From Escherichia coli (GTDB lineage Bacteria; Pseudomonadota; Gammaproteobacteria; Enterobacterales; Enterobacteriaceae), in the NCBI RefSeq assembly GCF_002854065.1, contig NZ_CP024147.1: DNA of 64,000 nt; one strand, written 5' to 3'. The notes beneath the pieces were generated by a model. It ran no database searches and was not told the DNA's origin. It was given only the letters and a program-made list of their open reading frames with translations. Below, in pieces: positions 53,444 through 55,333 of the stretch. The translations under genes and the position numbers were made by a program. Every line of letters begins with the position of its first letter. The stretch's first letter is position 1.

Positions 53444-55333
53444 TTACGCATCACCACCGAAACGACGACGACCGGTAGAGTCATCACGACGCGGAGCGCG
53501 GCCTTCACGACGTTCGCCGCTAAAACGACGACCATCACCACGACCACCTTCACGGCGTTCACCGCTGAAGTTACGACCACCTTCACGACGCTCGCCACTG
53601 AAACCACGACCACCGCCACGACGCTCTCCGCCAGTATGCGGCTGTGCATCGCCCAGTAATTGCATATTCATCGGCTTGTTCAGAATGCGAGTACGTGTAA
53701 AGTGTTGCAGCACTTCACCCGGCATACCTTTCGGCAGTTCGATGGTGGAGTGAGAAGCAAACAGCTTAATGTTACCGATGTAACGGCTGCTGATGTCGCC
53801 TTCGTTAGCAATCGCACCAACGATATGACGAACTTCAACACCATCATCGCGGCCCACTTCAATACGGTACAACTGCATATCGCCAACATCACGACGTTCA
53901 CGACGCGGACGATCTTCACGGTCGCCACGCGGACCACGGTCGTTACGATCGCGCGGACCACGGTCATCACGGTCACGGAATTCACGTTTCGGACGCATCG
54001 GCGCATCTGGCGGTACGATCAGAGTACGTTCACCCTGTGCCATTTTCAGCAGTGCCGCAGCCAGAGTTTCGAGATCCAGCTCTTCACCTTCTGCAGTCGG
54101 CTGAATTTTGCTCAGCAGTGCGCGGTATTGATCCAGATCGCTGCTTTCCAGCTGCTGCTGTACTTTAGCGGCGAATTTTTCCAGACGGCGTTTGCCCAGC
54201 AGTTCTGCGTTCGGCAGTTCTACTTCCGGAATAGTCAGCTTCATAGTACGTTCAATGTTGCGCAGCAGACGACGCTCGCGGTTCTCAACGAACAACAGCG
54301 CGCGGCCAGCACGACCCGCACGACCGGTACGACCGATACGGTGAACGTAAGACTCAGAATCCATCGGGATATCGTAGTTAACCACCAGGCTGATACGCTC
54401 AACGTCCAGGCCACGGGCTGCAACGTCGGTCGCAATCAGGATGTCCAGACGACCATCTTTCAGGCGTTCCAGTGTCTGCTCACGCAGCGCCTGGTTCATG
54501 TCACCGTTCAGCGCGGCGCTGTTGTAGCCGTTACGCTCAAGAGCTTCAGCCACTTCCAGAGTCGCATTTTTGGTACGAACGAAGATAATCGCCGCATCAA
54601 AATCTTCCGCTTCCAGGAAACGTACCAGTGCTTCGTTTTTACGCATACCCCAGACAGTCCAGTAGCTCTGGCTGATGTCAGGACGGGTAGTCACGCTGGA
54701 CTGAATGCGCACTTCCTGCGGCTCTTTCATAAAGCGGCGGGTAATGCGACGAATCGCTTCCGGCATGGTTGCAGAGAACAGAGCGGTCTGATGACCTTCC
54801 GGGATCTGCGCCATAATAGTTTCAACGTCTTCGATGAAGCCCATGCGCAGCATTTCGTCAGCTTCATCCAGAACCAGACCGCTCAGTTTAGAGAGGTCCA
54901 GAGTGCCACGTTTCAGGTGGTCCAGCAGACGGCCCGGAGTACCGACAACGATCTGCGGCCCCTGACGCAGGGCGCGTAATTGCACGTCATAACGCTGGCC
55001 GCCGTACAGGGCAACCACATTTACGCCGCGCATGTGTTTAGAGAAATCCGTCATTGCTTCAGCAACCTGTACCGCCAGTTCGCGGGTCGGTGCCAGCACC
55101 AGAATCTGTGGTGCTTTCAGCTCAGGATCAAGATTTTGCAGCAGAGGTAAAGAGAATGCTGCAGTTTTTCCGCTCCCCGTCTGGGCCATACCCAGAACGT
55201 CGCGGCCATTCAGCAGATGTGGAATACACTCTGCCTGAATTGGAGATGGTTTTTCGTAACCCAGATCGTTAAGGGCTTCAAGGATAGGAGCCTTCAGGCC
55301 CAGATCTGCAAAAGTGGTTTCGAATTCAGCCAT
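53444..55333 (-). CDS. deaD: DEAD-box ATP-dependent RNA helicase (CsdA)
   Basis: Track ORF to 55399; start set to ATG 55333 ([21 protein letters not shown]) giving 629 aa; DEAD-box motifs (GSGKT, DEAD) and an arginine/glycine-rich C-terminal tail. Confidence 0.95.

Follow-up and report, generated by a model that had tools for sequence, protein, structure and literature searches.

The cold-shock RNA helicase gene deaD (csdA) of Escherichia coli, together with the disordered DeaD_C region (PF12343) of its product, is already known, as is the usual behaviour of low-complexity tails encoded by repeats, and the DNA analysed here, a 64,000-nt stretch of an E. coli genome (contig NZ_CP024147.1; hereafter the window), contains that very region in a form 97% identical to that of K-12. 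Among related systems, the tails of the Pseudomonas aeruginosa helicases RhlE1 and RhlE2 are likewise basic and of low complexity and follow the helicase core, and in these helicases the disordered tail increases the affinity for RNA and brings about phase separation (PMC11260450). By analogy, the RhlE tails may be taken as a working model for the role of the DeaD tail, although RhlE belongs to another helicase subfamily, its tails have no sequence relationship to that of DeaD, and DeaD, unlike RhlE, contains a dimerisation domain and a folded DbpA-type RNA-binding domain ahead of the tail.

The eukaryotic RGG/RG boxes of FUS, DDX4 and LAF-1 are, like the DeaD tail, Arg/Gly-rich, disordered and repetitive, and they also sit on RNA helicases or RNA-binding proteins and have been linked to RNA binding and to condensates. 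In contrast to an RGG box, the DeaD tail has RGG only once (within RRGGGR), the recurring motifs being GGR, ERR and GRR, and it is rich in acidic residues, with 7 E and 4 D beside its 19 R. By its sequence, therefore, the tail would be classed as resembling an RG-rich region rather than as a canonical RGG box. Bacteria are not known to methylate arginines of this kind.

At the DNA level, the deaD tract has in common with coding minisatellites (VNTRs) its head-to-tail units of 33-45 nt, in-frame differences between strains and junctions located at repeats, but it differs from them in its low number of copies (about three, with 78% identity), in the rarity of its variation (4.4%) and in the frequency of sub-unit events of 12 or 15 nt. 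The tract is VNTR-like, since its copies are above chance and its length changes in repeat-mediated, in-frame steps; it is of no use as a typing locus and is not comparable with the hypervariable repeats of surface proteins. Phase-variable contingency loci consist of homogeneous units of 1-9 nt whose change in length shifts the reading frame or the promoter spacing and thereby switches expression. The deaD tract was rejected as a locus of this kind, because its units are imperfect and 33-45 nt long, its long repeats are in phase and the nine non-standard length classes found all keep the frame.

Identity and context of the deaD locus

The stretch 53444-53650 of the window is the 3' end of deaD, the stop codon of which occupies 53444-53446 on the minus strand. 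The features of this end of the locus, in the direction of deaD transcription, are as follows:

53444-55333, minus strand: deaD (csdA) coding sequence, 629 codons plus stop (ORF list, translation, Pfam, RefSeq)
53660-53869, minus strand: DbpA-type RNA-binding domain, residues 489-558, directly before the tail (Pfam PF03880, alignment, model)
53447-53635, minus strand: R/G/E-rich C-terminal tail of 63 residues, residues 567-629 (composition, Pfam DeaD_C)
53377-53401, minus strand: hairpin resembling an intrinsic terminator, 43 nt beyond the deaD stop codon, with a T run behind it

In 5,425 of 5,426 complete E. coli genomes the RefSeq label under the matching DNA is deaD; one genome of the 5,426 lacks any match to the deaD tail, and one plasmid-typed record in the same collection carries one match to it. 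The deduced protein contains the helicase core (DEAD, PF00270, residues 30-196, 177 bits; Helicase_C, PF00271, residues 232-340, 111.8 bits) and the C-terminal architecture specific to DeaD (DeaD_dimer, PF25399, residues 374-443, 64.7 bits; DbpA, PF03880, residues 489-558, 73.6 bits; DeaD_C, PF12343, residues 568-629, 45.7 bits), all these matches being above the curated cut-offs. Two PDB entries described as 'ATP-dependent RNA helicase DeaD', 5gju and 5gi4, match residues 6-210 and 218-445, respectively. The gene is flanked in the window by a 294-aa ORF for NlpI upstream and a 414-aa ORF for the tryptophan permease Mtr downstream, and the order nlpI-yrbN-deaD-mtr is the same in the RefSeq loci inspected. 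Over 601 nt, the deaD allele of the window is identical to that of strain 100416, whereas it has 99.5% identity to those of O157:H7 strains and about 97% to those of K-12-like strains.

A second low-complexity stretch of DeaD was observed in the R/D/E-rich linker that joins the dimerisation domain to the RNA-binding domain (53870-54001, minus strand). This linker holds a period-9 tandem repeat (Tandem Repeats Finder array 53989-54012) and, measured from AALLKM to YRIEVGR, it varies from 54 to 81 residues among Enterobacterales species. Downstream of deaD, the loop of the terminator hairpin varies among E. coli strains (TTTGAACC, TTTGTACC, TTTTTACC, TTTTAACA), and in strains 24A16CRGN010 and Z0117EC0005 a segment of about 35 nt directly after the deaD stop codon (53402-53443) is replaced by one that is 2 nt shorter. 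Further downstream, the sequence GTACTCGTGTACTGGTAC, located upstream of mtr at about 53340-53357 on the minus strand, is kept in all aligned strains; it looks like a Trp-repressor operator, presumably involved in mtr regulation.

Repeat structure of the C-terminal tail

The tail contains 19 R, 19 G, 7 E and 4 D among its 63 residues, R, G and E together making up 71%, and DeaD_C matches residues 568-629 end to end with a score of 45.7 bits against a cut-off of 23.3. It can be written as four degenerate units of the form x-G-E-R-R-E/G-G-G-R-x-F, 33, 33, 45 and 39 nt long, followed by an end without repeats:

53600-53632, minus strand: first repeat unit, 33 nt
53567-53599, minus strand: second repeat unit (unit B), 33 nt; K-12 has G at its first S (G579S)
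53522-53566, minus strand: third repeat unit (unit C), 45 nt (Tandem Repeats Finder period 45)
53483-53521, minus strand: fourth repeat unit (unit D), degenerate, 39 nt
53447-53482, minus strand: non-repeated end of the tail, with the motifs PRR[DE] and RRR..DA kept across species (43 Enterobacterales C-termini)
53573-53587, minus strand: 15-nt repeat CGTGAAGGTGGTCGT, copy 1 (CDS positions 1747-1761); no perfect in-phase direct repeat in this allele is longer
53540-53554, minus strand: copy 2 of the same 15-nt perfect repeat, 33 nt downstream in deaD (CDS positions 1780-1794)

The original prediction, made from the sequence alone, had placed repetitive DNA coding for the arginine/glycine-rich tail of DeaD at 53444-53650, and both the coordinates and the assignment proved right, the latter on the strength of the RefSeq label in the 5,425 genomes and of the DeaD_C match. 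Tandem Repeats Finder detected two arrays, one of period 33 (53537-53626, with 2.7 copies, 78% matches and a score of 117) and one of period 45 (53502-53589). When the 189-nt tail was aligned to itself, the top off-diagonal score was 37 at a shift of 33, a value reached in 1 of 1000 codon-shuffled tails (18.1 +/- 3.6), while the remaining 189-nt windows of deaD scored 20 or less. Head-to-tail copies are thus detectable in the tail DNA above chance. The description given earlier of the repeated peptide is exact for this allele, with the 10-residue unit occurring twice and FSGERREGR once. The DNA unit quoted with it held when read as a 23-mer, which matches at 53541 and 53574 with no more than 2 mismatches (0 matches expected), and failed when its dot was taken as an additional base, since no match then appeared even with 3 mismatches allowed. 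Near 53499-53521 the 23-mer has a third copy, which has diverged further.

The codon usage of the tail is strongly biased, CGT accounting for 17 of the 19 Arg codons and GGT for 13 of the 19 Gly codons. Of 42 cases in which aligned units share an amino acid, 25 also share its codon, and the probability of a common codon calculated from tail usage amounts to 0.54 (G), 0.81 (R) and 0.59 (E). Codon identity between aligned units is therefore close to the usage prediction, which argues that the units are neither recent DNA copies nor being homogenised. The DNA periodicity is no stronger than that given by the protein repeat together with the CGT/GGT bias; it arises secondarily, from an old repeat at the protein level that is spelled in a very biased codon set. 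For the same reason, all the exact direct repeats of at least 8 nt within the tail are spaced by multiples of 3 (13 of 13 in this allele and 12 of 12 in K-12).

The allele of the window and that of K-12 differ at 6 sites of the 207-nt tract, 5 of them synonymous. The longest perfect repeat in the tail is 15 nt with a spacing of 33 nt in this allele and 18 nt with a spacing of 78 nt in K-12, and the G579S substitution gives this allele three FSGERRE starts against two in K-12. Unit B was observed to carry three changes with respect to K-12 (GGT to AGT, which is G579S, GAA to GAG, and GGC to GGT), two of which increase its likeness to unit C or D, and different strains carry various mixtures of these changes. 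Such mixtures could come from exchange between units or from recurrent third-position changes.

Length alleles of deaD within E. coli

For a census of tail lengths, all the in-frame deletions and duplications expected from misalignment of direct repeats of at least 6 nt were enumerated on ten SNP backgrounds, and the resulting junction-specific probes, with no 28-mer in common with the standard alleles, were run against all complete genomes; each length class was then checked by the annotated CDS length and by sequence. Junction probes were used instead of BLAST identity bands (601-nt and 207-nt queries), which undercounted length variants: the +15 alleles appeared as two 100%-identical pieces and the -78 alleles were still above 80% coverage. 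The tally of verified alleles is exclusive of three single-genome probe hits (GF4-3, GDSC2227PM and LH50-c).

Of the 5,425 complete E. coli genomes, about 239 have a non-standard tail length (4.4%, the canonical length accounting for about 95.6%). This number is a lower bound because the probes cover only in-frame, repeat-mediated events on the sampled SNP backgrounds and frameshifts would escape them. The nine non-standard classes are the following:

+30 nt, three copies of GGERR, 639 aa: 1 genome (CFIAFB20180511), counted among the 50 below
+15 nt, GGERR duplicated, 634 aa: 50 genomes, the +30 genome included
+12 nt, REGG duplicated, 633 aa, CDS of 1902 nt: 158 genomes
-12 nt, 625 aa: 2 genomes
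-15 nt, 624 aa: 2 genomes
-33 nt, one 11-residue unit lost, 618 aa: 1 genome (K56-43-un)
-66 nt, 607 aa: 3 genomes, two of them O145:H28
-78 nt, 603 aa: 21 genomes
-132 nt, almost the entire repeat array lost, 585 aa: 2 genomes (FXCREC035 and FXCREC004)

All nine classes are in frame and keep the terminal RRRFGGDA, and every junction sits at a direct repeat of 6-18 nt. The -78 deletion, for instance, corresponds to the DNA between two copies of the 18-nt perfect repeat GGCGAACGTCGTGAAGGC, and in three of its carriers the flanking DNA represents three haplotypes, with 12-18 differences over 760 sites. This diversity points to recurrence of the -78 deletion, which would have arisen more than once unless one old event was moved by recombination. 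Judged from the junctions in the assembled genomes, the length alleles probably originated by replication slippage or short-homology recombination. Most of the variant genomes carry one of two alleles, +12 and +15, which look as if they were inherited within lineages; the +12 strains 042 and PCN033 and an ST69 strain are ones that we take to belong to phylogroup D. The canonical length in about 95.6% of the genomes, together with these two apparently lineage-inherited alleles, indicates that slippage is occasional and that the tract is only mildly unstable.

The original prediction had also described the tract as variable in length between strains and as prone to slippage, and had named an invariant repeat number as the outcome that would contradict it. 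That comparison was run and invariance fails, both within E. coli and among species. The expectation of slippage stands as far as occasional events with direct-repeat junctions are concerned, whereas the canonical length of most genomes speaks against hypervariability. A literature search returned nothing relevant on an in-frame repeat polymorphism of deaD.

Several apparent variants were rejected. Eight junction-probe hits, in strains 104, 2020CK-00188, 2013C-4282, AF39, 2017-02-2CC, EC529, GmM077 and NCTC9112, were false positives: their 1890-nt CDS showed them to be alleles of standard length, with combinations of SNPs not represented among the ten backgrounds. The apparent +33 and +45 duplications were discarded on this ground. 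The -78 allele was also considered as a laboratory-made deletion, because one of its carriers, EC0026B_R4, is described as laboratory-derived; since the allele is common to four EC0026B derivatives and to 17 other genomes, it is a natural one. The 585-aa protein of FXCREC035 and FXCREC004 bears in RefSeq the name 'DEAD/DEAH family ATP-dependent RNA helicase' instead of 'DeaD', and the loss of the tail repeats appears to take this allele below the threshold of the naming model. As the renamed shortest allele illustrates, length alleles of one gene can pass for different genes in comparative tables.

Constraint and variation between species

In 18 sampled standard-length alleles, representing 16 DNA sequences, the variable sites of the 201-nt tail were 20 synonymous and 5 nonsynonymous, and one protein accession, WP_001295553.1, is encoded by many DNA alleles. 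The excess of synonymous changes and the common protein accession suggest that the tail, despite its predicted disorder, is selectively maintained within E. coli, that is, under purifying selection.

Between species the tail is more variable. In a scan of 80 Enterobacterales deaD loci, with one genome per species, the tail measured from the conserved MNMQL motif ranges from 62 to 106 residues (median, 82) and has 2-6 ERR motifs. An alignment of 43 Enterobacterales C-termini revealed an almost invariant RNA-binding domain followed by a tail with gaps at unit boundaries, in which only the GERR blocks, FSGERRE, PRR[DE] and RRR..DA are kept as motifs. An additional RRFSGE is present in the tail of Salmonella arizonae, and additional APRR[DE]D blocks are present in those of Raoultella and Klebsiella. 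The gaps at unit boundaries and the extra blocks indicate that the tail evolves by gain and loss of units.

Alternative explanations

The length differences might be errors of sequencing or assembly. The +30 and -33 classes, each represented by a single genome (CFIAFB20180511 and K56-43-un), could be assembly errors, and some groups of carriers come from one study, as is the case of FXCREC004 and FXCREC035 and of the four EC0026B derivatives. However, the repeats are short (units of 33-45 nt with perfect runs of no more than 18 nt) and lie far under the read length, all the variants are in frame with junctions exactly on direct repeats, the major alleles recur (158, 50 and 21 complete genomes) in assemblies made independently by many laboratories, and several variant proteins hold RefSeq WP accessions of their own, so that an artefactual origin is very unlikely. 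Nor does the periodicity seem to belong to something other than the DeaD protein. A role of the tract in the deaD mRNA, as a folded 3' element or as the source of a small RNA, would suit its place shortly before the terminator hairpin of the gene, but a search of 52900-56500 gave no match to any Rfam family with E-values up to 1, and conservation between species tracks the GERR, PRRD and RRR..DA motifs while synonymous changes are free and units are inserted or deleted; a function at the RNA level is thus extremely improbable. An open frame on the plus strand spans the tract as well (145 aa, 53316-53753, R/P/S-rich), but its translation is the antisense reading of CGT, GGT and GAA codons, its start lies within the deaD-mtr intergenic terminator, RefSeq annotates only deaD in every record inspected, and the variation between strains, with its 20 synonymous and 5 nonsynonymous sites, fits the deaD frame. 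The chance that a plus-strand gene owns the periodicity is practically negligible, and this ORF was rejected as an antisense shadow of the deaD codons. Another stop-free ORF of the plus strand, of 439 aa (53660-54979), is also antisense to deaD, and there is no annotation at either ORF; these long antisense ORFs look like by-products of the deaD codon bias.

A different proposal accepts the alleles as real and regards tail length as an adaptive tuning knob, in which unit changes are selected in particular lineages for their effect on RNA binding, condensation threshold or growth in the cold, much as coding minisatellites have been proposed to be a source of evolvability. The alleles form an ordered series from -132 to +30 nt, with one, two and three copies of GGERR as steps, two of them have reached 50 and 158 genomes, tail length differs widely among species, and in RhlE the condensation driven by the disordered tail depends on tail length and composition (PMC11260450). 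On the other hand, the frequent alleles appear lineage-linked, which fits neutral hitch-hiking, and the canonical length of 95.6% of the genomes goes together with purifying selection on the amino acid sequence; we therefore regard selection on tail length as unlikely. It is similarly doubtful that the proteins of 585 to 639 aa constitute a graded series along which the RNA affinity of the helicase and its threshold for condensation are shifted. If they did, lineages with such alleles, for example the +12 and +15 clades or the O145:H28 strains with the -66 allele, would be expected to diverge in growth in the cold, ribosome assembly or persister formation, and the short in-phase repeats would be a built-in generator of variants.

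Proposed origin and role of the tail

The AlphaFold2 model, based on the 43-sequence alignment, has neither helix nor strand in residues 560-629 (pLDDT 42-51) and folds the DbpA-type domain as beta-alpha-beta-beta-alpha-beta (pLDDT 60-71). The tail is thus predicted to be an intrinsically disordered region. In the PDB there was no sequence match to the tail, the DeaD structures found ending at residue 445. CsdA depends for its activity on long single-stranded extensions of the RNA, and its C-terminal region has been proposed to hold a secondary RNA site that is non-specific (PMC1616957); moreover, full-length DeaD/CsdA condenses in vitro in a manner that depends on RNA and is sensitive to salt (PMC12758526; bioRxiv 10.1101/2024.10.04.616694). 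In the literature examined, no experiments on the tail itself, including tail deletions, were found. From its composition and its relatives, the tail would most likely be a sequence-non-specific RNA tether and a condensate-promoting element.

The reading that we prefer is that of an old repeat with rare, frame-preserving changes in length. The Arg/Gly/Glu-rich, net-positive and disordered tail of 63 residues is made up of four degenerate units of 11-15 residues each, and this old repeat would have been retained at the protein level, the DNA being repetitive through the preference for CGT and GGT. The biased codons in turn give perfect direct repeats that are in phase, with lengths of 8-15 nt here and a maximum of 18 nt in K-12, and on such short repeats replication slippage or short-homology recombination may act. 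What results would be gains or losses of whole codons, with the reading frame always kept; they are probably tolerated but rare because the canonical length and the sequence are under purifying selection in E. coli, whereas over longer times the number of units drifts between species. Next to the folded DbpA-type RNA-binding domain, the tail might tether RNA and add multivalency for the RNA-dependent condensation of DeaD. Taken as a whole, this account of the deaD 3' end, with its disordered repeat tail, its rare in-frame slippage and its putative RNA-tether role, is in our judgement very probably correct.

The deaD allelic series is a small addition to a known gene with a known domain and has little weight as a discovery. 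It provides a natural set of DeaD tails, from -44 to +10 residues, that could be used to probe RNA binding, cold adaptation and condensates, and DeaD condensates are now being linked to persistence.
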